Below, in pieces: positions 947 to 63,947 of a DNA stretch of 64,000 nt. The position numbers were made by a program, and so were the translations under genes. The notes under the pieces are model-generated. The model saw nothing but the letters and a program-made list of their open reading frames with translations. It searched no databases and was not told the origin of the DNA. The number at the start of each line of letters is the position of its first letter. Within the stretch, counting starts at the first letter, position 1. The stretch covers positions 75,591 through 139,590 of the IMG/VR virus record IMGVR_UViG_3300010885_072825; one strand, 5' to 3'. The stretch is from a virus.

Positions 947-2263
947 TCAATCAAAATCTGCTAGCAGATCAATGTAAGCATATGCCCCAAACGGCGGAAC
1001 AATACGAGATCCATGTCCTCCTGCGATGATCCAAAGAGTGTCACAATAATCGGACGATCCCCAGCCATAATTTGGATATCCATCTGTGAACCAAATTGCT
1101 TTCTTTGGCAAGATTTCATTTTGTTGCCAATATTCCCAAACAGCTTCAAAGCTAGTACCGCCGCCGCCTCGGCATTCATAACTTAGAAACTCTTCTTTGT
1201 TTTCATGTGTAAATTCCTGGTAGTTATGGATGCTAGTATCGAAGCACAAAACACCAATTTTAAACTGAGAATATACTTCCATGATTTCCCAGACTTCAGT
1301 CAAAAATTTCCTAGCAACTTGATCACTGATTGATGCACTCATATCAATTGCAACTTGTACATCAATTGTTTCATCCACATTAAGAACCGGCATGAAAATA
1401 CTAGTACCCGTAAACCTGCGATTGGGTTCCATAAAGGTATAATCGTCTGACATACAACTGTTGATAGTTGATTGCAGTAGTTCTCGCCAATTGATTTCTG
1501 GTGTTAGAAAATTGTTGAGCAGGCGTTGCATGCCAGCGGACATATTACCTGCCGCTGCGGCTGCTGAACTAATCAGCGCTGACTTGATATGTTCTCGAAT
1601 TTCTTCTAGATCAGCATCACTAATTTTAGGCATACTTTGCCCACCCGGATTTTTGCCATCTTCAGGGTCACTGGATCCTGCCATGGGAATATGAACATCC
1701 AGAGTCAGCTGTTTCTTGACCTTTCGTTTCATCAAGTCATCATAAACAGCTTCACTGGTCCATAGGTTGGGTTCACAATAGCGTTTGTCATAGAGTCCAA
1801 CGCGTTGTTGACCTTTGGTGGCAGAAGTTGTATCAACCACGATTTCTGTGGGCATCTTACCAATGCCTTCTTGTTCCAGAAATCCATTGACAATAAAATC
1901 CGTTGCCATGTTCCAATAGTCTGGATCGCGCAGTGAACGACGTCCAAAATGTTCAAATGCACAGTGAAGCAGCTCATGACAAAACACAAACATGAGTTCT
2001 GATGGTGCACCAGACTGTTCAACGGCTAGTCCTAAAACAAAGTCTGCATTGTAATAGATCTTTCGACCATCAACTGCCATCGTAGGACACCATCCTACAT
2101 CGGTGGCATCTACTAGACCAAAATGCATTGCCAGATTTCCCAAGAAGGGGTGTTTCATAAGTAGACTGATTCTGGCCTTAGTAATTTGACGCCGAGCTAG
2201 TTCTGACTTCTGACTTTTTTCAGCAAGTGTCAATTCTTTTGTTTTTGTTACTGCTTTTGCCAT
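947..2263 (-). CDS. DUF2201-type metallopeptidase-vWA protein, partner of a MoxR ATPase
   Basis: HELLH zincin motif, DMSAS MIDAS motif, GGGGTSF and FTDG. Confidence 0.85.
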   Translation of the reverse strand: MAKAVTKTKELTLAEKSQKSELARRQITKARISLLMKHPFLGNLAMHFGLVDATDVGWCPTMAVDGRKIYYNADFVLGLAVEQSGAPSELMFVFCHELLHCAFEHFGRRSLRDPDYWNMATDFIVNGFLEQEGIGKMPTEIVVDTTSATKGQQRVGLYDKRYCEPNLWTSEAVYDDLMKRKVKKQLTLDVHIPMAGSSDPEDGKNPGGQSMPKISDADLEEIREHIKSALISSAAAAAGNMSAGMQRLLNNFLTPEINWRELLQSTINSCMSDDYTFMEPNRRFTGTSIFMPVLNVDETIDVQVAIDMSASISDQVARKFLTEVWEIMEVYSQFKIGVLCFDTSIHNYQEFTHENKEEFLSYECRGGGGTSFEAVWEYWQQNEILPKKAIWFTDGYPNYGWGSSDYCDTLWIIAGGHGSRIVPPFGAYAYIDLLADFD

Positions 2264-3453
2264 TAGACGATCAATTCTGCAAATTCTTTGGTGTATTCTT
2301 TCCAGATAGGCAAATCACGCCCACGGTATTGTGTTGGTTGGTGTGGGTGCCCCAAAATACCTTTACATCCCATAACAGCCAGCTCACGTTCAAAATTCCT
2401 TAGGATGAATGTTAAATACGTGTTGGCCATTTCCTTCAGTTTTTTAACTGAATCCGGATTGGGGTTGGCTGCGGCTTTTTTATCCAGTTCAATAAGTCGA
2501 TAAATGCAGCTTGTGATCAAGCTATATACAATACCAATGTCTTTAATATCTAGTTTAGTGAGTTTACCAGTCAAAATTTCATCTGGGTTGGGAAGTTTGG
2601 CGGCCTGTTCTCGATACTTCATGAACTTCAAACCACGACTTGCTCCCACTGTGCCATTTACCAGTGACGTCAGTGTTGATTCAGTGTTCCAGACCTTTTC
2701 GTGAATATTGCCCGCATCATCCACAGTCTGGAGGAACTTGCTGACAAATTCCCAGGAACGTGGTGTAGCAAATGCTTCTGAATCCATGTTCTCACCAAAC
2801 GAGTTTAGGTCGTTGGGCTGGAAGCAAATATATCCCACAACATCTCGGTGGATTCGGTTTTGCATGGCCCACATCTTCCAGTCTTCAAAAGTCGTTTGAA
2901 GTGTGACATGGGTGAACCTGTTCCTGAGAGGAGTTGGCATTTTATAGCTAACGCCCTGGTCCTTCAGTCGATTGCCTGCTGCAATAATTGCACATTGTTC
3001 TGGCAGTTGGTAATTGCCAATACGTCGGTTTAGAATCATTTGATAGGTAGCTGCTTGTACACTGGGAGGAGCAGCTGAAATTTCATCATAAAATACCAGT
3101 GCTCGACTAGCTTGGTCAACTGGTAGGTCACTGGGATTACTCCAGCGGAATTCCTTTTCAACCAATGGCACCCCGGTATCATCACGCACTAGTTTACCAT
3201 CAGCATCAAATACTTTTACTTCTGCTAGATAGGGAATGCCTCGAACATCTGTAATATCCAACAGTGGCAATCGAATATCAATAAGTGGTCGATTTTGTTT
3301 TTTCGCTGCTTGCGCAACAATATCAGACTTACCAACACCTGGCCCAGCCCAAATCATAAGAGGACGTTTCATATCGATACAAACGTCGATCATTTCAGCA
3401 AGTGCTGCTGGTCCTACTGAATCACTGATATCAATCGTATTACCTTTAGACAT
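2263..3453 (-). CDS. MoxR-family AAA+ ATPase
   Basis: Walker A GPGVGKS, Walker B FYDE, AAGNR, PLRNRF, TPRSW. Confidence 0.9.
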   Translation of the reverse strand: MSKGNTIDISDSVGPAALAEMIDVCIDMKRPLMIWAGPGVGKSDIVAQAAKKQNRPLIDIRLPLLDITDVRGIPYLAEVKVFDADGKLVRDDTGVPLVEKEFRWSNPSDLPVDQASRALVFYDEISAAPPSVQAATYQMILNRRIGNYQLPEQCAIIAAGNRLKDQGVSYKMPTPLRNRFTHVTLQTTFEDWKMWAMQNRIHRDVVGYICFQPNDLNSFGENMDSEAFATPRSWEFVSKFLQTVDDAGNIHEKVWNTESTLTSLVNGTVGASRGLKFMKYREQAAKLPNPDEILTGKLTKLDIKDIGIVYSLITSCIYRLIELDKKAAANPNPDSVKKLKEMANTYLTFILRNFERELAVMGCKGILGHPHQPTQYRGRDLPIWKEYTKEFAELIV

Positions 3454-3523
3454 TCAAATACCTTTTTTCTCGGGTTGTATGTCAATTATATGGTAACTTT
3501 TTTGTTTGTCTACCTGACTAGTA

Positions 3524-3946
3524 TCAAAAAGTGCAAAAGGCTCGAACATTTCCACTGGATAATTGGAATTCAAAAGCTGCTTCTGGATTCCAGAGAAACA
3601 TAGTGCCTGATTTGAAAAACCAGGGTCCTGCTATGTAGCGATTCAAACCAATTATGACTTTGGGTGTCATTTCAGCTTGGAATTCTCGATAGGTTTTTGT
3701 TTGAAGTTCAACTGCAATAGGTGGCCAGTGTGGGGACAATAATTCAAATCCGAATTTGGTTAACTGCCAACTCCTGTTTACCCAAACTAGGTCAGCTAAT
3801 TCCTTGATTCGTTTTGCGTGTTCATCGGGACCCCGGTCAGTCAATTCCTGCAAAATAGGATTCAAGTCATTGATTATTTCAGTAACTTCCTGTCTAGATA
3901 TTGCCTGTGGAAAACGATCACTCACCTTCTTTGATTTCAACTCCAC
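3524..3946 (-). CDS. Hypothetical protein
   Basis: 140-aa ORF within the minus-strand gene run. Confidence 0.55.
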   Translation of the reverse strand: MELKSKKVSDRFPQAISRQEVTEIINDLNPILQELTDRGPDEHAKRIKELADLVWVNRSWQLTKFGFELLSPHWPPIAVELQTKTYREFQAEMTPKVIIGLNRYIAGPWFFKSGTMFLWNPEAAFEFQLSSGNVRAFCTF

Positions 3947-4214
3947 TGTTTAAAAGAAAAACTTGAAATTTAGTTGTTTTAAACATTCGATTTAATTTTT
4001 CCGCCAAATTAAAAGCATGACCCTGATTGGAAAAACTGCTTTTTTTATATTTCAGTGAATTTTCACTCAATAGACTATTTTTAATAGTTCTCAAATTAAT
4101 GGGTTTGCCGTCATAGAATACAGCATAAATGCCGGTTGCTGCTAATACCTGTTCACTTTTATAAGTTTTGGGATCCGTATAATTTAATACTACTCGAGGT
4201 TTGGGACGCGACAT
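3918..4214 (-). CDS. Conserved jumbo-phage hypothetical protein
   Basis: MSRPKP...YKKSSFSNQGHAFNLA; ATAAATA motif upstream at 4240-4246. Confidence 0.7.
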   Translation of the reverse strand: MSRPKPRVVLNYTDPKTYKSEQVLAATGIYAVFYDGKPINLRTIKNSLLSENSLKYKKSSFSNQGHAFNLAEKLNRMFKTTKFQVFLLNSGVEIKEGE

Positions 4215-4255
4215 AAAAACACCATAATGATTATATGGCTATTTATTCATTTTGT

Positions 4256-4492
4256 TCAAAAATTTCCACCTTCAAAACTTATATCAATTTGCTCAGATTT
4301 TTGAAGTTCAATGATTTGATTTTGTAGATCAAGAATTTTAGAACTCAACGATAATTCGCGCGCTAAAACTAGACTTATTGCAGTAGATAATCTTTCTGCT
4401 TCCTGTATGCTCAAACGAATTTCTTTGCTATTTTGATTTTTAGCTGTTTGAAATTTAAGAACAAATTCTTCTATTCCATGATAATTTGACAT
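4256..4492 (-). CDS. Hypothetical protein
   Basis: 78-aa ORF tightly packed in the operon. Confidence 0.65.
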   Translation of the reverse strand: MSNYHGIEEFVLKFQTAKNQNSKEIRLSIQEAERLSTAISLVLARELSLSSKILDLQNQIIELQKSEQIDISFEGGNF

Positions 4493-4493
4493 T

Positions 4494-4976
4494 TTATTGC
4501 AATTCCTCGGATTTGTTTTTTTCTTGATTTACCACATGCGTTGCTTCAAGTTTCGTTTTAAATGGTCCCAAGGTTTGATACTGTTCCAAGGTTGCTTTTT
4601 TGGGGGAAAATGCAGTTGTCCAGCCATTGGGAAATAAAATTACCCAATAACCAGCCGCATATAATACGTCTGAAGTAGCCGTTTTAGTATAAGTTGGTAT
4701 TTGCCCCTCAGTTATATTGAATGGCGCGTGTTTTACCGGGAACCCTGAAATATCACCCAGTTCTTCTGATTTGTTATTGTCAGTTACTTCTTCAATCTGT
4801 ATTTCTATTTTGAGCTGTTTTTCCATGTCAGCAAATGATTCAAACGTTTTGCCTTTGGCAATAGACACTCCAATCAGATGGTATGTTTCATTTATCAATG
4901 CACAAAGTCCCTGTTTATTTCCCCCTACTGAAACAATCCAGCTGGTTGTGGATATTGGTTTAAAATCATATCGCAT
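4494..4976 (-). CDS. Hypothetical protein
   Basis: 160-aa ORF overlapping the rnh stop. Confidence 0.7.
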   Translation of the reverse strand: MRYDFKPISTTSWIVSVGGNKQGLCALINETYHLIGVSIAKGKTFESFADMEKQLKIEIQIEEVTDNNKSEELGDISGFPVKHAPFNITEGQIPTYTKTATSDVLYAAGYWVILFPNGWTTAFSPKKATLEQYQTLGPFKTKLEATHVVNQEKNKSEELQ

Positions 4977-5973
4977 TGGCAGTATTCCTAATTGTCAATA
5001 AATGTCCGGTATAGGGTGTAGAGAAGCAAGCACTAAAATCACTTGCCGATTTTTCTATTCTAACCAATCCATGCGTGTGACAAAATTGCAACAACCCAAT
5101 ACCAACTTGTGATCTACCGGGCCTATCAATTGAATCCAATATTGAACTATCAAATTTTTCAATTAGATCTGCTGGCTGTTGAGTCAAGTCAATCAGTAGT
5201 CGATTCCTTTTATAATCATCTTGTACACGGTGTTCCGCGCCTTCGTGATCCAACCAAGTACTTAACATCAAATTATTCCAAGCATAGCCCTGTGTAGTTC
5301 GATCTTCAAACGCCAGCTGCATCTGCGTTTTTCTAACGCGTGGAAAAGCAGACATGATATTATCTGAAGAATCTCCGCGCAGACATTTTTCAAACAACAT
5401 CCATTCGGGATCGGGTTTGGCTATTTGGTTGCCTTTTTTATCAACAGCCGGGGCCCCATTTTTGTCCCAAACACCTTCAATAGTGTATAAGAGTGCTGAT
5501 ATACCATCATAAAGCATTACACGATCTGATATCAATTGTTTGAAATCACTGTCACTGGAAATAATAACGTGATTATCTTCAGGATGTAATTGTATCCAAC
5601 GCGCAATAAGATCGTCTGCTTCAGCTTCTGGGTTTTGAAGAACTGTGCAATTGGTTTTTGTTCGGAGAAATTTAACAAATTCATTCATTGTTTCAAAAAA
5701 AGCAGTGTCGTCATCTATTTCACGCTGAGTTCGCTGTGCAGCAGCCGCCTTTCGATTTGCCTTATAGGGAGCATAGATATTTTTTCTCCATGAACGTCCT
5801 TCTAGCATGAAAACCAGGTGTTTGGAATCTGCATCAAACTGATCCCAAACTTTTTTAATACTTTGGAATATTATGTGCAATGCCATTCCAGAAGCTGAAT
5901 CTTGATCCGGTGCTCGAATACCATGTCTTATTCGCATGAATAGATTTTGTTGATCTATTAGGATATATCTCAT
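4966..5973 (-). CDS. rnh: T4-type RNase H / 5'-3' flap exonuclease
   Basis: YILID, SWRK..Y.PYKANR, EADD, SSDSDF and GDSSDNI motifs. Confidence 0.9.
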   Translation of the reverse strand: MRYILIDQQNLFMRIRHGIRAPDQDSASGMALHIIFQSIKKVWDQFDADSKHLVFMLEGRSWRKNIYAPYKANRKAAAAQRTQREIDDDTAFFETMNEFVKFLRTKTNCTVLQNPEAEADDLIARWIQLHPEDNHVIISSDSDFKQLISDRVMLYDGISALLYTIEGVWDKNGAPAVDKKGNQIAKPDPEWMLFEKCLRGDSSDNIMSAFPRVRKTQMQLAFEDRTTQGYAWNNLMLSTWLDHEGAEHRVQDDYKRNRLLIDLTQQPADLIEKFDSSILDSIDRPGRSQVGIGLLQFCHTHGLVRIEKSASDFSACFSTPYTGHLLTIRNTANAI

Positions 5974-50877: not shown

Positions 50878-51906
50878 TTAAAATACCTTAATCAAAATAC
50901 AATCTGAATTCAAACGTCCTGTTGGTTGATGTGCTTTGCCTTTGACATAGTCAGCAAACACAATCTTAGCGCGCTTGGCACTGCTCAAGTTAGTTTCAGT
51001 TAGCATTTCACGCGGCTTTCGAATAGTTTTTCCCCAGCTTAGCGCCGGATCAAATCCCGAAATATTGCTGGTTGACAAATCCAATCCCGTTTCTGATTCA
51101 TAGTACCAAAGAATTCGATTCTTGGTATTGAATACTAGTGCCGTCTTTGCGCCCACAATCTGTCCTGGATCAACTCCAACCAGTCCCCATTCCACATCCA
51201 GCTGTTTGGATTTGACTTGGCTGGCTTTCTTCTGTGTTTTTAAACTCTGCGTCTTTCGACCAGCAACGGTAGCATTTCCAGTCCTAGCTGCCAGCACATT
51301 GTTGACAATCATAAGTGGCATCACTGTTTCACTTACAGCAGGATTGGCTAGTGATTTTACTACCAGCATATAATCTTCATGATAATGCTTGTAGAGCTTT
51401 TTCAATAGATTGGTTGATGGCTGAGTTTGTCGAATTAGTTGATCCAATTTGGTTTGAATCAGATCTGGGGTTTGTCGATTATGCCACCAAATTTGATCAA
51501 TACGGCTAAACATGTTGACATATTGAATTGTCTGTCTTTGACGAGCTGAGAGTTCAATATCAGGTTCTTCAGTTTGATGCGACACGTTTTGACGAATCTT
51601 TCGCATTTCTTTATCAAACCAGTCTTGTGTCTGCTCAGTCAATTCACCACCATTGTTTGAAACCCAAGCAATCTTGCCAACTGACAAGAATCGCCAATCT
51701 GGTGCAGCCTCATACCAATCCCAGTCGTGATCATTCAATTCACACCAAGTTTTTGTATGTTGTTTTAGTTCAGCATTGTTAAATTCATGTCGAGCATAAC
51801 CTATTGCAGCATGATACAACATGGCATAATCGGTATTTGAAACAGTCAAATCATTAAAGTCTGGTAAATCACCACGTTGTCCAAAAGATGTATCATGTTT
51901 CGACAT
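50878..51906 (-). CDS. Conserved T4-like hypothetical protein
   Basis: VFNTKNR...KTIRKP...GRLN. Confidence 0.7.
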   Translation of the reverse strand: MSKHDTSFGQRGDLPDFNDLTVSNTDYAMLYHAAIGYARHEFNNAELKQHTKTWCELNDHDWDWYEAAPDWRFLSVGKIAWVSNNGGELTEQTQDWFDKEMRKIRQNVSHQTEEPDIELSARQRQTIQYVNMFSRIDQIWWHNRQTPDLIQTKLDQLIRQTQPSTNLLKKLYKHYHEDYMLVVKSLANPAVSETVMPLMIVNNVLAARTGNATVAGRKTQSLKTQKKASQVKSKQLDVEWGLVGVDPGQIVGAKTALVFNTKNRILWYYESETGLDLSTSNISGFDPALSWGKTIRKPREMLTETNLSSAKRAKIVFADYVKGKAHQPTGRLNSDCILIKVF

Positions 51907-51974
51907 TGAAATCTCCTATGCCAAATGATACATTTTTTGTTGTTAAAAGTCAACAGTTTATTTTTGATAAAAAT

Positions 51975-54900
51975 TTATATGGTTGTCAGTAGTTCTTGTA
52001 ATTTTTTCTTATCAGATAGGTTCAACATGTTGAATTTTTTTGATAGTCGTTTATTGTTAGCTTGATATTCAATCTGTATTTCTTGAAAATCAATTTCACG
52101 GACGAGATTCTGTAGAGCTCGGCAGGCTTGTTTGGAGGGTTGATGCATTTCAATTTGAAGTTGGTTTGTGATGTTTCCTCCGAATATTAGTCGTATTGCT
52201 CCGTCAGCTAGGAAATCATAATTTCGGTTATATCCCATTTCACTGGCAATTTTTTCGTGTCCAAACATTCTATCAACTTTTAAAAATGTACCAGTTGGCG
52301 AAATCCAACCACCATAAGTGCCTTTGGGTAATTGATATATTTCAGTAGCAACAGATTCAGTTAATGTATCTTTGATTTGGTCAAAATATTCTAGACAGTC
52401 AGCCTTCAAATAGGCATAGTATTTGTTCATCAACCCCAAATCAACAGATTCAATAGGGTGAATGTGATTGATTGCGCGCGGATGTTTGCTGCATGCAGCG
52501 GCTTGAATCATAGGAAAAGGGTTGAAAATATAATGAATTCCATACTCTGATTGCTGAACAACATATAATTGAACCTCTAAGCTTGGCTGCTTGATACATT
52601 CAATAGCACGCCAATTGGACTGAAGTGCCGCCAGTTGAACTTTGGCACTGGGATCCGATATTTCTTCTATATTCCAGGGACTTCTTTTCACCAATTCAAC
52701 CTGTCGTTCTTCTGGCCAAGTATTGGGATCAGCTACATCATAAGCAGCTTCTGTTAAATCTTGAAGACTATCAAAACGTCGAATAATTTTTCCAAGCCAA
52801 TTTGCAAATTTTTCACTATCCATGATTCGAATTTCTGGTTGTACTATGGTTGCAACTTCTGATCGAGACTTATACCTAGTTAAAACAATATCTGATAGTT
52901 GTGAACGGCGTGGTTCAAGTACTTGATTATAGAATACTGTCAAAGCCGGTTGTGTTGGTTTCGCCCATTCCAGTTGTAATCGGCCAGGAAGAAAAACAAC
53001 CCTAATACAACCTTTGATTAAAGCAGCGGTAGTTGCATTAAGAGTGTGAGAATATTTTTTTTTATCCAATGCTTTATCATGTCCCCAGCGATCTGTTACT
53101 GGTATGAATGTTCCATCTTCCAGGATCCAAGCACCATATAGATTGTTGGCATGTTCTTGTAAATTTTCTTTTTCAAGTTTTTCTAAATATTCATTTTGTT
53201 CAATATCCAAAATATCTCGATGTTTTTTCAATAAACTAATATCAATTGATTCTATTGGTACTATCCAGTTGATTAGTGATGGGAGTTTTTTAATAACAAC
53301 AAATTGAATCATTGGTGGAGGACGATATATATAACAAATTGCTCGAGGATTTTCGTTACATGCTGTCAATTGAACTTTAATACTCGGATGTTTGATCGCG
53401 TTTATATATTTATAATATGTTTGAACATATTTTATTTGTTTTTCTTCTGACCAAGTATTAGGATCACTTTCCCAATCATCAACTATTTCTGTTTCTTGCA
53501 AGTTTTCTTTTTCAATCTTTGCTAGATATTGAAGTTGATCTGGACACAAAATATCTCGATATTGCTGCAAGAGACTTATATCAGCTGATTCCAATGGACG
53601 GATAAAGTTGATCGCCCATGCATCTTTTTGACATGCTGCAAATTGAACTAATGGAGCCGGATTATTAATTCGAAAAATCATATGTGCATGCTGAGTTACT
53701 GCCGCCAATTGAACTGATATACTGGGGTTGTGAATTTTTTTTATATTATTGCTGTTCATCTTAACATAACAAATTTGTTTCTCTTCTGACCAAGTATTGG
53801 GATCACCTGACCAATCATCAAAAGTTTCTGCTTCTTGCAAATTTTCTTTTTCAAATTTTTCTAGATATTCTAGGCGGGCGGGATTCAAAATATCTCGATA
53901 TTGTTGTAAAAGACTTATATGGGTCGCTTCAATGGGATCTATAAAATTAATAATTTCAGGGTTTCGTTTGATTGCTGCATGCTGCACTGATACTGGTGGA
54001 TTATGTATTACTTCTATAGACGTTGCATTTTGTTTGACAGCAGCTAATTGAACTTCAACAACCGGATCTTTGATAAATTGAATCGCATAACCATTTTTTT
54101 CTACAGCAGCTAATTGAACCGCAACAACAGGGTCTTTGATACTTTTAATAGATACCCAATCGTTTTTAACTGATGCCAATTGCATCTTGACATCAATACT
54201 TACCAATTCTTCAGATTCAGCTGTTGATATATTTGGATTTACCGATTGTTCAATCAACTGATTTATAAAACGCAAAAACTTGGTAGCTGATTCAAATACT
54301 TCACCATCATAACCATCTGCTGTATCTAGAGCGGCATCACCTGATTCAAAAAATATTTTCAAAGTTGGGTTAACACGCCTAATTTCGTTTCTAAGAGCAC
54401 GTAACGCTTTTCTAGGGGGCGTCTGCATTCCCCAAGCTACTTCAGTTTCAACTATTTTTTCCCATTCTTTACTCCAGTGCTCATTCACAACTCGAATTGC
54501 ACCTTGATCAAACATTTCTGCATAGTTGCGGCAACCAAATCGTTCACGAGCTATCTTTTGATGTTGTTCATAACCAACTTCTATTTTTGAACCATCTGAC
54601 AAAATCCAACTTCCATAAGCAACAGTCGTTTGATTTTCTTGAAGCGTTTGGTTGGATAGATAAGCATTGATACGTTTTGTCACTTGCTGCCAATCACCTT
54701 GAATTACTGAATCTCCCCAATCAGCCACAATCTTTTCTGGTTTTTCTGCCATTATCAATCTGACCAGTGAACGCAATGCTGGGCGACTTTCTTTTGTAAT
54801 TTCAAATTCCATGCTTCCGCGTTCATAATTAGAGACAACTCGGATAGCGCCTTGTCGTAATAATCGTGGCAAACAAGCTGGTCCTGCCATGTCAGTAACA

Positions 54901-56621
54901 TCAAGTATTTCCATTGCAACCTGTTCATGGTTGGTATAATCAACTGCAACATACTTGCCATCTGGCATGATCCAATATCCATATCGAGTTGGTGGAATGA
55001 CAGCTTCGGTCAAGTTAGACAATCCATGTATTTCTTCATATTGTTTTACCAGTGCAGGAAGTCGGCACTCTCTTGGCTCAACCCAGGTAATAGATTCTGG
55101 ATTTTGTTTGTAAGCAGCAAACTGGATAAGTGGTGCAGGATTGTAAATTTGCAGAATTGCAAGCCCACTTCGTTGAACTGCGGTCAATTGCATTGCCAAA
55201 CTGGGATTAGTGAAATTTCCCAAATCTTCAGGATAGTGTTTTAAGTATTCGATTTTCTCTGCTTCAGGCCAGTTGTCAGCGTCTAGCCAAGTCGATGGCC
55301 AAGCACCAGGATCAATTTGCGTAGGAAAGATGTCATCTGATTCTACTATTGTAGTGTTTTTAATTTTTTGTTTATACAAGGCAGTTGCTTCTGCAGTGGG
55401 ATTTTGAATGTAGGGAAACAAAACTGGCATTTCTTTGACAATTTTCATTTGTAGACTGGTTTCCAAATTCTTGATATTTTCTAACGTAAATGACTGCTCT
55501 GTATTCCTATATGTTGCATTCGGATACAAAAATCCATTTAGACTACATAGATCAGATACAACAATATATTGTATCAATGCACTGGGATTATCAATTACAG
55601 TAATTGCTCTGGAATCATTTTTTACTGCTGCAATTTGAACTGGTAATGAAGGATTAATCAAAGATTCAATATTCCGCCAATCTTCTTTTACATAATCTAT
55701 TTGCTGTTCCAAACTCCAGCCGCGCGGATAATCAGAATCATCATAATCATCAGACTCGAAAGATTCTTTTAATGACATCTTTTGTTTATACAACGCAATT
55801 GCTTCCGGAGTGGGGTTTTGAATACAGGGAAATAATTCCGGTCGTTTTTCAATAATCATTAGTTGAATACTGGGATCTAAATTTGATATTAGCTTAATAG
55901 TTTTTCCAATGCCTGGATCTCCATGTTTATTAAGTAATTCAGAAAATGCCAAAAATTGTATTAAAGGTGGTGGATCGGTAATTGAATCTATTGCCCAAGG
56001 TTCATGTTTCACAGCCGCAATTTGTAGATTTATAGTAGGGTTGTTAAAAAAATAAATAGTATGTGGACTCCATTCAATTAATCGAAAATGTTTTGCGGTA
56101 TCATCAGATCTGGCTATAGCACGAAAATTACGTATACCTACAAATTCTCTGTCAAGTTCTTGTCTTCGACTATCATCTTCATCTGATTCATTTAAAACAG
56201 CAGCCTTTTTCAACTGTTGTTTGATCTCATTTAGTTTTAACAAAGCTTTTGAAAATGGCAACGTCCAACCAGCAACCGCATTCCAAAAATCCTTGGTCAC
56301 CGTATCAGGCCGTTCAGTACGACAAATTTGAATTAATGATGCAATTGCTGAAGCACTGGTTTTAGTTAGATCACATTGAAAACCAACATTTAACTCTCCA
56401 GTATAGACCGCATTTGACATCGTAACTCGGATTGATCCTGACTTGAACATGAGTTCATATCGCTCCATGTCATGACCAGTTATAACACCAAGTGACTCCA
56501 AATAATCAGCAGCAACTACCGCATGCTTCATATCAGCTACAGGCAGACATTCTCCAGATTCTAGAATCCAATATCCATATGAAGAGGGTGGGATTTCATG
56601 TTCCCATAAAACAATTGTCAT
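51975..56621 (-). CDS. Modular 1548-aa protein with 5 YG.WI..G/H/G.IRV domains and 7 helical QLAAV-repeat (DUF4116-like) modules; predicted cleaved polyprotein
   Basis: Internal repeats with module junctions at L/I-x-E; late promoter. Confidence 0.8.
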   Translation of the reverse strand: MTIVLWEHEIPPSSYGYWILESGECLPVADMKHAVVAADYLESLGVITGHDMERYELMFKSGSIRVTMSNAVYTGELNVGFQCDLTKTSASAIASLIQICRTERPDTVTKDFWNAVAGWTLPFSKALLKLNEIKQQLKKAAVLNESDEDDSRRQELDREFVGIRNFRAIARSDDTAKHFRLIEWSPHTIYFFNNPTINLQIAAVKHEPWAIDSITDPPPLIQFLAFSELLNKHGDPGIGKTIKLISNLDPSIQLMIIEKRPELFPCIQNPTPEAIALYKQKMSLKESFESDDYDDSDYPRGWSLEQQIDYVKEDWRNIESLINPSLPVQIAAVKNDSRAITVIDNPSALIQYIVVSDLCSLNGFLYPNATYRNTEQSFTLENIKNLETSLQMKIVKEMPVLFPYIQNPTAEATALYKQKIKNTTIVESDDIFPTQIDPGAWPSTWLDADNWPEAEKIEYLKHYPEDLGNFTNPSLAMQLTAVQRSGLAILQIYNPAPLIQFAAYKQNPESITWVEPRECRLPALVKQYEEIHGLSNLTEAVIPPTRYGYWIMPDGKYVAVDYTNHEQVAMEILDVTDMAGPACLPRLLRQGAIRVVSNYERGSMEFEITKESRPALRSLVRLIMAEKPEKIVADWGDSVIQGDWQQVTKRINAYLSNQTLQENQTTVAYGSWILSDGSKIEVGYEQHQKIARERFGCRNYAEMFDQGAIRVVNEHWSKEWEKIVETEVAWGMQTPPRKALRALRNEIRRVNPTLKIFFESGDAALDTADGYDGEVFESATKFLRFINQLIEQSVNPNISTAESEELVSIDVKMQLASVKNDWVSIKSIKDPVVAVQLAAVEKNGYAIQFIKDPVVEVQLAAVKQNATSIEVIHNPPVSVQHAAIKRNPEIINFIDPIEATHISLLQQYRDILNPARLEYLEKFEKENLQEAETFDDWSGDPNTWSEEKQICYVKMNSNNIKKIHNPSISVQLAAVTQHAHMIFRINNPAPLVQFAACQKDAWAINFIRPLESADISLLQQYRDILCPDQLQYLAKIEKENLQETEIVDDWESDPNTWSEEKQIKYVQTYYKYINAIKHPSIKVQLTACNENPRAICYIYRPPPMIQFVVIKKLPSLINWIVPIESIDISLLKKHRDILDIEQNEYLEKLEKENLQEHANNLYGAWILEDGTFIPVTDRWGHDKALDKKKYSHTLNATTAALIKGCIRVVFLPGRLQLEWAKPTQPALTVFYNQVLEPRRSQLSDIVLTRYKSRSEVATIVQPEIRIMDSEKFANWLGKIIRRFDSLQDLTEAAYDVADPNTWPEERQVELVKRSPWNIEEISDPSAKVQLAALQSNWRAIECIKQPSLEVQLYVVQQSEYGIHYIFNPFPMIQAAACSKHPRAINHIHPIESVDLGLMNKYYAYLKADCLEYFDQIKDTLTESVATEIYQLPKGTYGGWISPTGTFLKVDRMFGHEKIASEMGYNRNYDFLADGAIRLIFGGNITNQLQIEMHQPSKQACRALQNLVREIDFQEIQIEYQANNKRLSKKFNMLNLSDKKKLQELLTTI

Positions 56622-56651
56622 CCCTTATTTATTGGAAAACAAATATATAAG

Positions 56652-58784: not shown

Positions 58785-58812
58785 TTGACATGTGACAAAT
58801 GATTGGTATAAT
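58785..58812 (+). promoter_or_regulatory. Sigma70-type promoter
   Basis: TTGACA-N16-TATAAT. Confidence 0.65.
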
Positions 58813-58837
58813 TATAACAACTAGAGAAAGATTCCAA

Positions 58838-60712
58838 ATGAATCCCGAATTAAAACAACAAATAATTGATATCATAAAATCCAACAAACCAGACGGTGTT
58901 GTGACCAGACTTAAACATATTCCCGAGTTGTGGAATGAAATTATCACAAACATTCCCAACCTGTCTTATGATAATCAAGCACACAAAATATACCATTATG
59001 TGAACGAGTTAGCAGAAATCAAGAAATGCCCATGCGGCAAACCGGTGTCATTTCAAAGTCTAGTATTTGGATACCGGGAATTTTGTTCAGCCAATTGTAG
59101 TTTTGCAAAAGAAGCTGCAACAAATCGACGTATTGCAAAAATGCAGGCCAATGGCGGAGTGGGACTGGCCAATCCCAAAACTCGAGCCAAACAGCAAAAT
59201 AAGGTGTCGAACACTATCAATGCCAATCAATTATCACCTTCTGAAAACCACACAGATGAAACTATACGTGAAAAGATTTTAGAAATATTCACTAAAACCC
59301 CCAAACAATATAGCAGTGTAATAAAAAATGATCCTGTTATCTGGCCTTGGGTATTGAAAAATAACAAATTACAAGGAAATTCTGACTCAATTGCGGCAAA
59401 AATTTACAGTGCATATTATAATGAATCTGATGTTTGTCCAACAGGAAATCTAAAGAAATTCGATCGTTGGTCATCTGGGTTTACTGGATGCGGGGCGGCA
59501 AATATTTGTGCCTGTACTCAAGAATCAATATCAAAAAATGTAACATTGACTAAGTCAAAATATGACGACAATAAACGCAAGAAAATAAAAACTTTGAAAG
59601 ATCAAACAATGATCTCGAAATATGGAGTCGCACATAATCTACAACGGGAAGATGTTAAAGAAAAATTAAGAGCGCCGAAAGTGCCAATTGAAATACATGA
59701 TAAATTATCAGATTATAGTTGGATGAAAACAGAATATGTCGATAATCAAAGATCAGCTGCTGATATTTCAAATGATTTAAAAGTACATTACACAACAGTA
59801 ATTGACTATTGTAGAAAACATGAATTTCGCATCAGGAAACACAGCAAGTATTCTGTTGAAGAAAGACAAATATCACAATATCTAAATGAGTTAGGAATTG
59901 ATCATGAAACCAATGACCGATCTGTTTTAAAGAATTTAGAATTTGATATACTAATCAGAGATAAACATATAGCAATTGAAATGAATGGAGTACGCTGGCA
60001 TGCATATGATCCCAATTTTAAAAATCCTGAAGGTTTAAAATTAGAAGATCCAAATCGGCATCTACAAAAATCTAAATTGGCGGCAGACCTTGGCATTTTC
60101 TTGATTCACGTAACTGATCTCGAATGGAATAATAAACGAGAAATTATTAAATCATTGTTGAAAGATAATTTGGGGTTGTCTAAAAAAATCAATGCTGTAA
60201 ATTATAACATCAAAAATATTTCTAAAGAAATAGCACAGCAATTTTTAGAAACAAATCATATACAAGGATCGAGTAATAGTTCAATTCAATTAGGGTTATA
60301 TCTTAATAATGAATTATACATGGTATTGACAGCATATAAATCGAATATAGGTGATAATTCCATAATAGTTGATCGAATATGTGCAAAGCTAGATATAGAC
60401 ATCATGAACGGGCCAGAACACCTAATAAATTATTTGACACAAAACATAAATTATAAAATTTTTATACACTGTGATATTCAAAAATCAAATGGTAGTGAAT
60501 TCAATCAGATTGGTCTCAATTTAACAGCTATATCTAATCCAAATTATTTTTGGACAGACATGAAACGTATTATTTCAAAAGAAGAAGCTACATCAACAGA
60601 ATTTATAAAAAAGTTAAAATACTTCGATCCCATGCTCAATGAAGAACAGAATATGTGGAATAACAAATATGCAAGGTACCATGATTGTGGAAATTTTATT
60701 TTCACAATCTGA
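58838..60712 (+). CDS. Hef-like putative homing endonuclease
   Basis: Zn-ribbon CPCG..FCS..C, TMISKYGV, EFDILI...IAIEMNG..WH, FLETNHIQG, HDCG; antisense to the capsid operon. Confidence 0.75.
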   Translation: MNPELKQQIIDIIKSNKPDGVVTRLKHIPELWNEIITNIPNLSYDNQAHKIYHYVNELAEIKKCPCGKPVSFQSLVFGYREFCSANCSFAKEAATNRRIAKMQANGGVGLANPKTRAKQQNKVSNTINANQLSPSENHTDETIREKILEIFTKTPKQYSSVIKNDPVIWPWVLKNNKLQGNSDSIAAKIYSAYYNESDVCPTGNLKKFDRWSSGFTGCGAANICACTQESISKNVTLTKSKYDDNKRKKIKTLKDQTMISKYGVAHNLQREDVKEKLRAPKVPIEIHDKLSDYSWMKTEYVDNQRSAADISNDLKVHYTTVIDYCRKHEFRIRKHSKYSVEERQISQYLNELGIDHETNDRSVLKNLEFDILIRDKHIAIEMNGVRWHAYDPNFKNPEGLKLEDPNRHLQKSKLAADLGIFLIHVTDLEWNNKREIIKSLLKDNLGLSKKINAVNYNIKNISKEIAQQFLETNHIQGSSNSSIQLGLYLNNELYMVLTAYKSNIGDNSIIVDRICAKLDIDIMNGPEHLINYLTQNINYKIFIHCDIQKSNGSEFNQIGLNLTAISNPNYFWTDMKRIISKEEATSTEFIKKLKYFDPMLNEEQNMWNNKYARYHDCGNFIFTI

Positions 60713-60858: not shown

Positions 60859-62061
60859 TTATAAGAATTTCAAATTGGTTGTGTTCAGAGCAATACCGGC
60901 AAGGTAGTCGGCTGCATTGCCTAGTGAACTTGCAGTGTTGCTTAGTTCAATATAACCATATCTAGACATAAAGGAAACGACTGGTTCGAACGTGTTCGGA
61001 TCAATCACAACCCCTGAGCTGGTTAAGGGGATGAAGGGCGCGTAATAGGCGGCCGCGTCAATTTCTCCGGCGCCCTTATAACCAACCAATACAGGTGTGT
61101 TATCAGCAGCATATTGGTCAACATAAACGCGCATACTGTTGTTCAAAACGCCAACAAACTTTGTGTTAGTTGGTGCTTCAAAAGTACCTTCAGTTGTACG
61201 AGCAAAAGCTGAAGTTGTCGCTGATTGCAGTACGGTTAGAGCAGTTGGGCTAACAACTACCCAGTTACCTGCGCCACGACGGGTACGTGCAGCAATCAAG
61301 TTAGCACCACGATTGATTAGAACCGCTAGAGCAGCGTGTTCGTCACCAACGTAGGTAGCTGTACCACTAACTGAACCTTGGTCATATGTTAGTGTAGTAC
61401 CAGCTAGGGTACGTAGGCTAACCAGGATTTCTTGGTCGATTTCAGCAGTAATTTCTTGTGCAAGTGCTGCCATGATTTCAGCTTCGATGTCAATCCCTTG
61501 TTGAGCTTGTGCATCTTGCACAGCTTCAAAGGTCCAACGAGCTGATAGACGGCGTGTCTTAGCTTCAACGGTTTCACGTAGAACTTGGATGTTCAAGCGC
61601 TTACCAGCAGTACCTTCTAGAACGCTAACAGGAGCAGCTTTTGGAGTTGTGCTGTTACCGTTACCAGAATAGTAACGTGCGATTTCGAATGGGCTAAGTG
61701 CTTCAGCGCCAGCTACTGTAGCAGTAGGTGAACCAAAAGCGTCAGCATAACGAACGCGCAGTGTGTGGATTTGACCAACTGGACCGGTCATTGGTTGAAC
61801 GCCGATGATTTCGTTGGCAATAACAGTTGGCATAACTCGACGAATAACAGGCAGGATCACTTTGTTAAGTGTTGCGATGTTACCAGCGCCAGTTGCACCA
61901 GCTGTGGCAGATTCCATTAGCATACCAGCATTGCGAGTAGCCATGTCTTGTTTTGTATTTTCTAGGATTACTTCCATTACTCGCTTACGATTGCCGCTTA
62001 GGCCGTCGCAGAGAGCAGTTTTATAAGCACCCCATCGTGATTCGAAAAGATTTTGTTTCAT
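60859..62061 (-). CDS. Major capsid protein (T4 gp23-like)
   Basis: RRVMP..IA.EIIGVQPMTGP.G, EAKTRRLSARWT.E..QD, YAPFIPL, RYG. Confidence 0.95.
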   Translation of the reverse strand: MKQNLFESRWGAYKTALCDGLSGNRKRVMEVILENTKQDMATRNAGMLMESATAGATGAGNIATLNKVILPVIRRVMPTVIANEIIGVQPMTGPVGQIHTLRVRYADAFGSPTATVAGAEALSPFEIARYYSGNGNSTTPKAAPVSVLEGTAGKRLNIQVLRETVEAKTRRLSARWTFEAVQDAQAQQGIDIEAEIMAALAQEITAEIDQEILVSLRTLAGTTLTYDQGSVSGTATYVGDEHAALAVLINRGANLIAARTRRGAGNWVVVSPTALTVLQSATTSAFARTTEGTFEAPTNTKFVGVLNNSMRVYVDQYAADNTPVLVGYKGAGEIDAAAYYAPFIPLTSSGVVIDPNTFEPVVSFMSRYGYIELSNTASSLGNAADYLAGIALNTTNLKFL

Positions 62062-62064
62062 CTT

Positions 62065-63288
62065 TTAATTCTCCCTAACTTGGTTGTTGAGTCCGGCCAA
62101 ATGTAAAATTTCAGCAACTTCCTTTTGGATGTTCTGATCTTCGGTATTTGATTCTACCAGACGTTGTGAACGATTGCCTGTTGCAACTGTTCGAGTTTGA
62201 ACATTTTCGATCAACTCACGAGGACCGGTGTTCGTTGCTGGACCGTTTACCACAGCCGGCAAATATCGATTGAATGCTTCTTTAAGTTCACCGGTTCTGG
62301 TGTTCTTTAACATTTCAACCATAATAGTTTTCTTTTCACGACTCAGCGGAGCAGTAAGTTCAGTCAGTGTTTCAAGACGACGTGCTCGGTCTTTGGCTTG
62401 AAGTTCTGCGTGTTTTGCTGATTCCACTAGTTGTGTTTTTTCAAGAACCTGTTGTTTGGCTTTGTTGGTTTGCTGTTTTGATTCTTGTAGTTGCTTTTGC
62501 AGTTTCTTAATTTCACTGCCTTCGCTCAAATAGCTGGCCATATATTCGGCTGCTACTGCTTCGAATATTCTGCGTCCAAAGTTATTTTCTCTGGCTGCTC
62601 GAATATCTGATCTCCACTGGGTCAGTTCTCGGCGAATTACTTCGTTCAAAGTCTTGTCCAGGGTTTGTGTCGCGCGTTGAATAAAGCTCTTTTGGCTTTC
62701 TTGTATCTTTTCACGACCTTCAGCCAACATTTTTACACGTTGTTCAACCAGAGCAGTTTTTTCTGCTTCGAATGCGGTCAATTCTTCACTTAGTTGTTGC
62801 AACACAAAAGTTTCCAACTTGTTGATTTTTTCAGACATCAGGTTCTTTTGTTTTGACTCCATGATTGCCAGTTTCTTGGACATGTTTTTACGTTCAAGAA
62901 CCAATTGATTTCTGTCTTTGACAAAACTGCCAATTTCTGATTTCAATTGACGAACAACGAATTCGTTTAGAATTGCTGTTTGTTGTTTGATTTTATTTTC
63001 ATAGAGTCTTTTATTTTTCAGTGTTTCTTTGGTAAATTTTACTCTTTGTTCACTTAGTGATCGCTTGTCTTTATGGAAATCTTCGACTTCCTTTTTAACA
63101 GCTTCACTCAGCATAGTATTCATTGCTTCTACCAATACTGCTTTGTCATGTTGATAACGTGCAGCATAGGTTTCTTGCAATTCAGTTTCTGCTTGTTTTA
63201 CTTTTGAATCAAAAGCTTCTTGTAGTGCTGACTTGACGTCTTCGCCAAGTATTTCACTTTCAAGAAGTTCTGTTAATGCATCTTTCAT
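62065..63288 (-). CDS. Prohead core scaffold protein (gp22-like)
   Basis: Coiled-coil protein between protease and capsid genes; many LxE sites. Confidence 0.8.
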   Translation of the reverse strand: MKDALTELLESEILGEDVKSALQEAFDSKVKQAETELQETYAARYQHDKAVLVEAMNTMLSEAVKKEVEDFHKDKRSLSEQRVKFTKETLKNKRLYENKIKQQTAILNEFVVRQLKSEIGSFVKDRNQLVLERKNMSKKLAIMESKQKNLMSEKINKLETFVLQQLSEELTAFEAEKTALVEQRVKMLAEGREKIQESQKSFIQRATQTLDKTLNEVIRRELTQWRSDIRAARENNFGRRIFEAVAAEYMASYLSEGSEIKKLQKQLQESKQQTNKAKQQVLEKTQLVESAKHAELQAKDRARRLETLTELTAPLSREKKTIMVEMLKNTRTGELKEAFNRYLPAVVNGPATNTGPRELIENVQTRTVATGNRSQRLVESNTEDQNIQKEVAEILHLAGLNNQVREN

Positions 63289-63947
63289 CGGACATTACTC
63301 CTTTTTGTAAAGTTCAAATCTGTCACATAGTTCAGCAAAATCCGTTTCAGGTGTTTTTGAGCGGCGTCATCGTACCTTGCGCATTCTGCTAAATTCAGTG
63401 CTTGTGTACCGTATTTACGACCCATCAGTGCTTCATATACCGGTACTGGATATGCGTTTGGTGCAGATGGGTTAGCCACTATATCAACTGTCAGCATGTC
63501 AAAATCACTGACATCACCTTGTGAATCAACATTGCCTGAGCCACGAGAACTAACTCCCAGCTTGACACCACTTTCCAGCAATGTTTTGATAATATTTCCT
63601 TTGGGAGTTGGCAAAATCTGCAACTTGCCCATACCATTTGAACCATCCATCCACATTTTGGTTATTTTGTGACTGACTCGATCCAAATGAATTTGTAGTT
63701 CCTGTGGATGATCACATTCACCCAAAACGCCATTGTTTTTTTCAATAGCTTCGTTAATTGTGTTAACGGCTTGTTTTATTTCACTGATGGGATATACACG
63801 TCCGTTGTGGTTTCTTTGACCACCTTGAATGAATATACCCTGCATATACATCTTTTTTTCTGATGTATCCTTGTCTGATTCAGTCAGAACTTCAGCCTGA
63901 GCATTGTCAAATGTCAGATGTTCAACTAGAACAGTCGGGTGTTTCAT
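63285..63947 (-). CDS. Prohead protease (T4 gp21-like)
   Basis: N.NGRVYP, GE.DHP, VSHKI, PTPKG, GVSSRGSG, DIVANPSAP. Confidence 0.93.
   Translation of the reverse strand: MKHPTVLVEHLTFDNAQAEVLTESDKDTSEKKMYMQGIFIQGGQRNHNGRVYPISEIKQAVNTINEAIEKNNGVLGECDHPQELQIHLDRVSHKITKMWMDGSNGMGKLQILPTPKGNIIKTLLESGVKLGVSSRGSGNVDSQGDVSDFDMLTVDIVANPSAPNAYPVPVYEALMGRKYGTQALNLAECARYDDAAQKHLKRILLNYVTDLNFTKRSNVR

Follow-up and report, generated by a model that had tools for sequence, protein, structure and literature searches.

We analyzed a window of 64,000 nucleotides, which is the last 64 kb of the 139,590-bp IMG/VR virus record IMGVR_UViG_3300010885_072825. CheckV estimates the completeness of this record at 35%, and a length of 139.6 kb at such completeness makes this a jumbo phage. 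Positions 51975-56621 of the window, on the minus strand, hold a single open reading frame (ORF) of 1548 residues, and we refer to the encoded protein as P0001. P0001 contains a 7-residue leader, MTIVLWE, followed by 12 modules of two types, namely five A domains and seven B modules of the DUF4116 type. The modules are arranged in the order A-B-B-B-A-A-B-B-B-A-B-A, and the pieces cut at the proposed boundaries, when aligned, are 112-141 residues in length, with masses of 12.8-16.2 kDa. A first-pass annotation of the DNA had described this protein as a polyprotein whose modules are joined at sites of the prohead-protease type. Its parse of the protein, including the order and sizes of the modules, all 12 boundary tripeptides, and the coordinates of the Glu codons, was confirmed on the ORF.

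All parts of the P0001 gene are given here on the minus strand. The leader MTIVLWE/H (56601-56621) is a candidate capsid-targeting propeptide, and the orthologue P0003 begins with MAIVLTE/R. Module 1 (A, residues 8-145, 56187-56600) ends in LNE/S and has 60% identity with the module that opens P0003. It is followed by three B modules with DUF4116-type repeats: module 2 (residues 146-286, 55764-56186, ending in LKE/S), module 3 (residues 287-427, 55341-55763, ending in IVE/S), and module 4 (residues 428-539, 55005-55340, ending in LTE/A), the last of which is 69% identical to a module of the homologue P0002. Two A modules come next, module 5 (residues 540-662, 54636-55004, ending in LQE/N) and module 6 (residues 663-802, 54216-54635, ending in TAE/S), with P0002 modules 67% and 74% identical to them, respectively. 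The second run of B modules contains module 7 (residues 803-930, 53832-54215, ending in LQE/A), module 8 (residues 931-1043, 53493-53831, ending in LQE/T), and module 9 (residues 1044-1156, 53154-53492, ending in LQE/H). The protein ends with module 10 (A, residues 1157-1291, 52749-53153, ending in LTE/A), module 11 (B, residues 1292-1422, 52356-52748, ending in LTE/S), and module 12 (A, residues 1423-1548, 51975-52355 including the stop codon), which has 63% identity with the final module of P0003.

Pairwise identity within one module family of P0001 is just 26-52%. The five A modules have in common the pattern YGxWI..G....V....H, then a variable stretch, and then G(A/S/C)IR(V/L), and the seven B modules are composed of NPSxxVQLAAV-type repeats. 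Most of the modules have an acidic pI of 4.5-5.8, and two of the A type, module 10 (pI 9.3) and module 12 (pI 9.0), are basic. The sole Pfam match of P0001 is to DUF4116 (PF13475), at residues 837-872 in module 7, and its score of 20.8 bits is below the cut-off of 24.9. The homologues P0002, P0003, and P0005 score 93, 70, and 137 bits for DUF4116, and PF13475 is present in nearly all shorter B-type homologues. No embedded peptidase (MPTase) or recognized effector domain was found in P0001 with Pfam, NCBIfam returned nothing meaningful, and the PHROG matches are exclusively to families of unknown function.

The motif [LI]xE is found at 11 of the 12 boundaries of P0001 (LWE-7, LNE-145, LKE-286, IVE-427, LTE-539, LQE-662, LQE-930, LQE-1043, LQE-1156, LTE-1291, and LTE-1422), and the exception is TAE-802. 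At the TAE-802 junction, LIE-791 is located 11 residues upstream, and the same junction in P0002 reads LIE/E...ISE/S. Across the junctions, P3 (L or I) and P1 (E) are preserved, P2 is variable, and P1' is mostly S or A. P0001 contains 20 copies of [LI]xE in total, compared with ~21.6 expected from its composition, and 11 of the 20 are exactly at the boundaries. When junction windows were set by module-start motifs, independently of [LI]xE, 9 of the 20 sites fell within 13% of the length of P0001. A further copy, LQE-1543 in module 12, is 5 residues before the C-terminus.

The placement of the motif is conserved among relatives of P0001. We found four long homologues (P0002-P0005, 33-46% identity), as well as DUF4116-repeat paralogues of 757, 292, and 661 residues in the same phage, upstream of the window. 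The paralogues are located at 2842-5115(+), 51535-52413(-), and 66042-68027(-) of G000:C1, the whole 139.6-kb record, and have [LI]xE/S/A/T joints before module starts of the DPNTWSEEQQ type; their leaders include MKILDLIE/D (LIE-8) and MRALDYLSE/L (LSE-9). In P0001-P0005 and the three paralogues, module starts were found by a YGxW-type or WSEExQI-type motif, independently of [LI]xE. An [LI]xE lies within 24 residues upstream of 42 of the 43 module starts, compared with 25% of random windows in the same proteins, and the sole exception reads VLE/S. As controls, we counted [LI]xD, [LI]xQ, [LI]xK, [VA]xE, [FM]xE, and E.[LI], each of which was present in between 1 and 22 of these windows; [LI]xD, [LI]xK, and E.[LI] were moderately above background, and the other controls were below it. 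The junction motif is found at all four kinds of joints (A-to-A, A-to-B, B-to-A, and B-to-B). Homologues thus keep [LI]xE at their junctions, a point on which the polyprotein proposal of the first-pass annotation depended.

Comparison of the long homologues also shows gain and loss of modules. Orthologous whole modules (41-74% identity) can be recognized among P0001, P0003, and P0002, yet a given module may be lacking from one of these proteins. P0003 contains orthologues of modules 1, 2, 10, 11, and 12 of P0001 (41-63%) and lacks the middle block, P0002 contains the 4-5-6 block at 67-74% identity, and the C-terminal end of P0002 is a DUF3140 domain after an SLTE/S joint. These sequence comparisons indicate that the modules behave as cassettes. 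A megablast search with the P0001 gene against GenBank phages gave no match, a tblastn search with P0001 against the same set gave 4 records only, with every match through the B repeats, and P0001 alone as a query against viral contigs found no relative. In Agrobacterium phage Atu_ph07 (L015), the gene of a DUF4116-repeat protein (AUZ95001.1) and that of the major capsid protein are ~1.1 kb apart.

Single-domain relatives of both module types carry the same motif near their N-termini. A profile of the five A modules matched 235 proteins at E <=0.001 among 1.84 billion representatives, and many tandem arrays are among the 150 matches listed. The A-domain set we analyzed contains 154 proteins, 49 of them shorter than 200 residues. 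In short proteins with an early YGxW, [LI]xE lies 3-14 residues upstream in 40 of 46; among these 40 leaders, 22 place the Glu at position 8-10, 18 have Ala at P1', and 5 have Ser there. Five standalone A leaders contain T[YF][KQR][EQ][FY] (for example, MMTFKQFLVE/S and MLTFKQYLIE/T) and resemble the capsid-targeting sequence (CTS) of T4, where the N-terminus of both ipII and ipIII is MKTYQEFIAE/A (NC_000866). Some standalone A leaders contain two or three consecutive [LI]xE. Over all 154 proteins, the motif precedes 54/80 N-terminal and 81/162 internal A domains, against a background of 10%. We also note an ORF at 1269-1478(+) of L026, near the end of a 177-kb contig (G003) that encodes an S77 protease. 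This ORF starts with MKTYRQFLFE/ARIEIPETGYGYWI, very close to the T4 CTS, and stops after 69 residues with an apparent shift to GC-rich sequence, which may reflect an assembly join or a truncated gene.

For the B modules, we considered 59 shorter DUF4116 homologues with an initial Met; in 38 of them, [LI]xE occupies position 6-14, with leaders such as MRAYEFITE/A, MRYTEFLLE/Y, and MKILDLFE/N. As background, 23 of the 165 ORFs in this genome have an N-terminal [LI]xE, with a somewhat narrower range of positions (6-12) used for the count. This is close to chance, so we set the N-terminal motif aside as a genome-wide marker and regard it as informative only within families. No standalone single B modules of 62-198 residues were found, in a search limited by its word index. 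An arrangement of separate genes is seen in Salicola phage SCTP-2 (L016), in which gp45, gp46, and gp48 have a common leader, MK[IV]KHITQYLFE/S. SCTP-2 genes 45-48 are adjacent, the fourth leader is MKVKQITE/A, and three of the genes encode a common N-terminal domain and differ in the C-terminal part, which in one case consists of a DUF4116 array.

The head genes of the phage are located 4.2 kb from the P0001 gene, also on the minus strand. The presumed processing enzyme is a prohead protease of the T4 gp21 family (63285-63947; Peptidase_S77, 89.9 bits; phrog_207). It is 32% identical to T4 gp21 over 146 residues, and its His-80 and Ser-133 align with H85 and S140 of T4, which we take to be the catalytic residues in both proteins. 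The major capsid protein (60859-62061; Pfam Gp23, 317 bits) contains LME-50/S, which aligns with LTE-65/A of T4 gp23 and LRE-10/S of T4 gp24, the cleavage positions given in the literature for these two proteins. Between the two genes is that of a scaffold-like protein (62065-63288; phrog_10922), which is rich in the motif, with 24 [LI]xE in 407 residues compared with 7.8 expected; T4 gp22 contains 16 in 269 residues compared with 5.7 expected. The first-pass annotation had placed head genes with the same motif about 4 kb away, and all the sites are indeed present: LME-50/S in the capsid protein, LLE-10/S and LVE/S in the scaffold-like protein, and LTE-23/S in the protease. The cleavage motif of T4 gp21 is given as L/I-X-E in the passages of PMC9026906 that deal with it. 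The gp21-family protease, the aligned capsid site, and the [LI]xE-rich scaffold together indicate that the protease of the window likely has T4-like specificity.

The A domain occurs in other viral contigs, alone and in arrays. The contig G001 (347.5 kb, 90% complete) encodes an S77 protease and 11 A domains, ten of which form a cluster of neighboring ORFs between 5.5 and 12.9 kb. Within this cluster, three ORFs next to one another contain 1-3 A domains each, with the leader motif MRLL..L.E and with LME, ITE, or VAE at the internal joints. Such forms between single genes and arrays are consistent with an origin of the 12-module protein in which tandem genes for internal proteins became fused. 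An A-domain match and an S77 protease are found together in three contigs (G001, G003, and G005; the match in G003 is the truncated 69-residue ORF), and S77 was not found in G002, G004, and G006, which are small fragments with an estimated completeness of 2-10%. Among 18 viral loci found with a relaxed pattern, 5 contain real A domains; the other loci, among them L036 in the S77-negative record G007, match by chance. A back-translated pattern, which covers part of the family, gave 101 loci in 185,579 cellular species genomes, and none of them fits the A profile beyond the 16-20-residue motif.

The A domain had no consistent match in Pfam, NCBIfam, or PHROGs (ten standalone A proteins) or among PDB sequences (best E 0.65), and two standalone A proteins used as tblastn queries found nothing among GenBank phages. 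The only family hint is a DUF4859 match overlapping the A domains of P0012 and P0015. Elsewhere, in proteins from metagenomes, the A domain is fused to other domains. They include a GH19 lysozyme-type domain (an ORF in L021, 37.7 bits), an ART-PolyVal ADP-ribosyltransferase (P0103, 191.9 bits; P0012, 38 bits), and a 2H phosphoesterase (P0130). The proteins encoded at L021 3431-6547(+) and L027 8281-10848(-) have a common N-terminal pair of A domains, start with MTRELFE, and then diverge. The former continues with the GH19 domain and a long hydrophobic C-terminal part, and the latter with apparent Toprim and nucleotidyltransferase motifs, judged by eye and with no Pfam match at E <=0.001. Lysozyme, ART-PolyVal, and 2H are among the kinds of domains that sections of PMC5512222 assign to polyvalent proteins, which are predicted there to be packaged and delivered with the DNA. 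The partners of the A domain point to host-directed cargo rather than scaffold, and this support is indirect. They are not evidence for anti-defense activity of any module of P0001.

The sequence ATAAATA, a candidate -10 element of a late promoter, is located at 56626-56632 on the minus strand, at -11 to -5 from the ATG of P0001. There are 65 copies of ATAAATA over both strands of the 139.6-kb record, and a copy lies <=60 nt upstream in 38 of 165 crudely called genes, so that it is a genuine signal ahead of genes in this phage. In contrast, the T4 octamer in full, TATAAATA, shows no enrichment across the window (5 found versus 4.6 expected). Copies of ATAAATA in the window include the one before P0001 and sites upstream of 58756, 11333, and 33345. 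Two classes of position before start codons were observed: -11 (nine genes) or -12 (two genes), versus mostly approximately -26 to -38. The -11/-12 class typically consists of ATAAATA, 4 nt, and ATG, as in ATAAATAGTTGATG and ATAAATAAGGGATG, and in the -26 to -38 class a Shine-Dalgarno-like GGAG comes after the element. P0001 has the -11 spacing in common with 8 other genes, including two of the three DUF4116 paralogues, and the protease gene has ATAAATA at -36. The late promoter proposed by the first-pass annotation is thus plausible, but a position of -11 to -5 leaves no room for a normal leader. If ATAAATA is a T4-type -10 element, genes of the -11 class may have leaderless or near-leaderless late mRNA.

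The upstream neighbor of the P0001 gene (56652-57908, minus strand) encodes a modular protein of 418 residues, with ATAAATA at -35 and with LFE-14 and IME-20 in its leader region. Its N-terminal repeat, NK[LI]VK[YL]VGY[SK]SVLD[FM]LN[QK]H, is present in two copies. Two DUF4116-like units follow LSE/SDQMTPADREAMLKRDG each, and there is a third, after ISE/SDQ; no family was matched in Pfam or PHROG. Between the head-gene block and the modular-protein genes is a 637-residue ORF similar to homing/HNH endonucleases (58799-60712(+); phrog_3339 and phrog_559).

On the basis of these comparisons, we consider it probable that P0001 is a capsid-targeted polyprotein of a T4-related jumbo phage, which would be cut into proteins of the size of T4 internal proteins. 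P0001 would be made late, and it would enter the prohead core through short leader-like elements, which are the N-terminal MTIVLWE and the similar hydrophobic-x-E at each junction. The gp21-type S77 prohead protease would then cut after the Glu of [LI]xE at the 12 junctions and release about twelve folded pieces, comprising five A-domain proteins and seven DUF4116-repeat proteins. The size of these pieces, together with a density of one site per 77 residues (one per 17 residues in the scaffold-like protein), fits the release of folded domains, not degradation. The location of the gene 4.2 kb from the head genes, and the ATAAATA that it has in common with the protease gene, also agree with this interpretation. 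The pieces would be kept in the head with the DNA, like the internal proteins of T4, and would leave with the DNA at infection, after which they may act on the host. The array probably originated by fusion of tandem single-domain internal-protein genes, with the old leader cleavage sites surviving as the junctions.

Several observations weigh against this interpretation. The total number of [LI]xE in P0001 is at the level of chance, so only their placement counts as evidence, and the case depends on it. Nine more [LI]xE are found inside the modules, and EKENLQE is common to three junctions, which are therefore not independent. Homologous sequences in general are not independent observations, and a single MRYTEFLLE-type group accounts for about 17 of the 38 DUF4116 leaders. 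The leader of P0001 is only 7 residues long and is dissimilar in sequence to the T4 CTS. Only about half of the internal A domains carry the motif. The distant ART-PolyVal proteins P0103, P0012, and P0015 have stretches such as ..TAAT/TAA.. or ..EAS.. before their A domains, not [LI]xE; the joint motif may vary with the lineage, perhaps with the protease. None of the P0001 modules matched known anti-defense or effector families in Pfam, PHROG, or NCBIfam. Lastly, the Glu of the A family is mostly 7-8 residues before YGxW, and this preferred spacing suggests that the motif could be a structural part of the domain, not a cleavage site.

The preferred spacing is what would be expected if P0001 were an unprocessed and unpackaged repeat protein, or a structural, decoration, or fiber-associated one, in which [LI]xE with a small residue marks a helix end or linker inherited by duplication. 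The conserved (E)xLxE stretch that ends the B modules, the chance-level motif count, and the wide occurrence of DUF4116 repeats outside this context would agree with such a protein. We nevertheless regard it as unlikely. The motif is common to the ends of two unrelated module types, and the linker is not constant in length, with 5-13 residues from the Glu to YGxW in P0001. Furthermore, single-domain relatives place the motif 8-10 residues from Met-1, like the T4 CTS, and viral contigs contain the A domain, three of them along with S77 (in G003 as a truncated ORF). None of the 101 pattern matches in cellular genomes is a real A domain.

P0001 may instead be packaged and remain essentially intact (~175 kDa), with only the N-terminal leader and perhaps the tail after LQE-1543 removed and the junctions uncut or partly cut. 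There are precedents in T4, where Alt is described in passages of PMC5694885 as trimmed only at ITE-6 and LTE-619. Not all [LI]xE of T4 gp23 are cut either, since four are kept in the mature protein (with the maturation site taken from the literature), and P0001 carries LWE-7 and LQE-1543 at its two ends. This alternative leaves unexplained both the retention of [LI]xE ahead of 42 of the 43 module starts across diverged relatives and the likeness of the internal junctions to the N-terminal leaders of single-domain proteins, and we consider it quite improbable. Least likely in our assessment is that P0001 is a head-assembly component with no role in the host cell, an inner-body-like or core protein that builds or sizes a large prohead or organizes DNA and is cut like gp22, gp67, and gp68 of T4 or the inner-body proteins of phiKZ. 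In favor of this role, a jumbo phage could use helical repeat modules for its architecture, most modules are acidic as scaffold proteins are, and parts of PMC9026906 and PMC10052503 describe abundant processed paralogue families in the heads of phiKZ-type phages, but the sites of P0001 are far sparser than those of the scaffold, its module content differs between relatives, which is unexpected for an assembly component, and in other proteins lysozyme and ADP-ribosyltransferase domains are joined to the A domain.

The proposed polyprotein has features of several known systems. Like IPI, IPII, IPIII, and Alt of T4, P0001 has a short N-terminal leader that ends in L/I-x-E (MTIVLWE/H), and a gp21-family protease is present in both phages; Alt loses 6 residues at ITE-6, according to the part of PMC5694885 concerned with it. 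The T4 internal-protein precursors are 95, 100, and 193 residues long, compared with 112-141 residues for the predicted products of P0001. As with the T4 proteins, the family is diverse and fast-evolving, and single-domain relatives of both module types have leaders that resemble MKTYQEFIAE/A. The T4 internal proteins are encoded by separate genes with one leader each, whereas P0001 contains twelve units in one ORF with a candidate cleavage motif at every joint. PHROG searches with P0001 and ten standalone A proteins found no homology to T4 internal-protein families, and no direct pairwise comparison was run.

The polyvalent proteins of Iyer et al. 2017, as far as sections of PMC5512222 describe them, are polypeptides of phages or conjugative elements with 2-15 domains and portal-terminase packaging, for which packaging and delivery along with the DNA are predicted; in the model, they are processed into functional units. 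The A domain recurs with ART-PolyVal, 2H, lysozyme (GH19), and DUF3140, in line with that concept. Classical polyvalent proteins mix unrelated enzymatic domains with an MPTase peptidase of their own. In contrast, P0001 consists of paralogous copies of two domains without assigned function, and the prohead protease, acting in trans, would cut it at a motif of the T4 type. The inner-body and ejection proteins of phiKZ, 201phi2-1, and SPN3US are similar in that they belong to jumbo phages, form paralogous head families, and are cut after Glu at multiple sites per substrate by a gp21-related protease (passages in PMC9026906, PMC5694885, and PMC10052503). The proteases of these phages belong to family S80, with S/A-x-E or A-x-E motifs, and the cuts mainly clear long propeptides and leave one mature fragment, whereas each segment between sites in P0001 is a whole predicted folded module. 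The T4 core proteins gp22, gp67, and gp68 also have many L/I-x-E sites cut by gp21. They are cut to small peptides that leave the head, with a site about every 17 residues in gp22, as in the scaffold-like protein of the window, whereas the presumed accessible sites of P0001 are 112-141 residues apart.

Taken together, the conserved junctions, the leaders, the gp21-family protease, and the gain and loss of modules support the view of the first-pass annotation that one gene gives many small head-internal proteins freed at prohead-protease sites, while the presence of the pieces in virions, their cleavage, and their ejection are steps that we infer. The anti-defense role that it suggested for the modules has no direct support. 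No published description of such a polyprotein was found in the literature searched, where most subscription journals fell outside coverage.

Proteins that are carried in the head and ejected with the DNA act before phage gene expression, and examples include anti-restriction proteins and host-modifying enzymes. If our interpretation is correct, a polyprotein processed by the prohead protease would be a compact and expandable means of loading many cargo proteins from one gene. More tentatively, with slightly more doubt than belief, we suggest that T4-related jumbo phages could use the prohead protease more generally, to unpack cargo polyproteins of modular build. Fused genes would keep their leader sites as joints, one late gene would load about a dozen proteins, phages would exchange whole modules, and DUF4116 would be head cargo. 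An undescribed capsid-delivered family would be represented by the A domain (YGYWI..G..H..GWIRV), which is seen in single genes, in short and 12-module arrays, and in fusions with lysozyme, ADP-ribosyltransferase, and 2H enzymes. The A domain and DUF4116 would then both gain a testable cellular context, which for DUF4116 would be its first biological context, as cargo of the phage head. Such a polyprotein would also link the capsid-targeting system of T4 with the concept of polyvalent proteins, and it may offer a design idea for loading multiple cargoes in T4-type protein-delivery vectors. For uncultivated jumbo phages, [LI]xE in leaders and at junctions together with an S77 protease would provide a simple sequence rule for recognizing packaged cargo.

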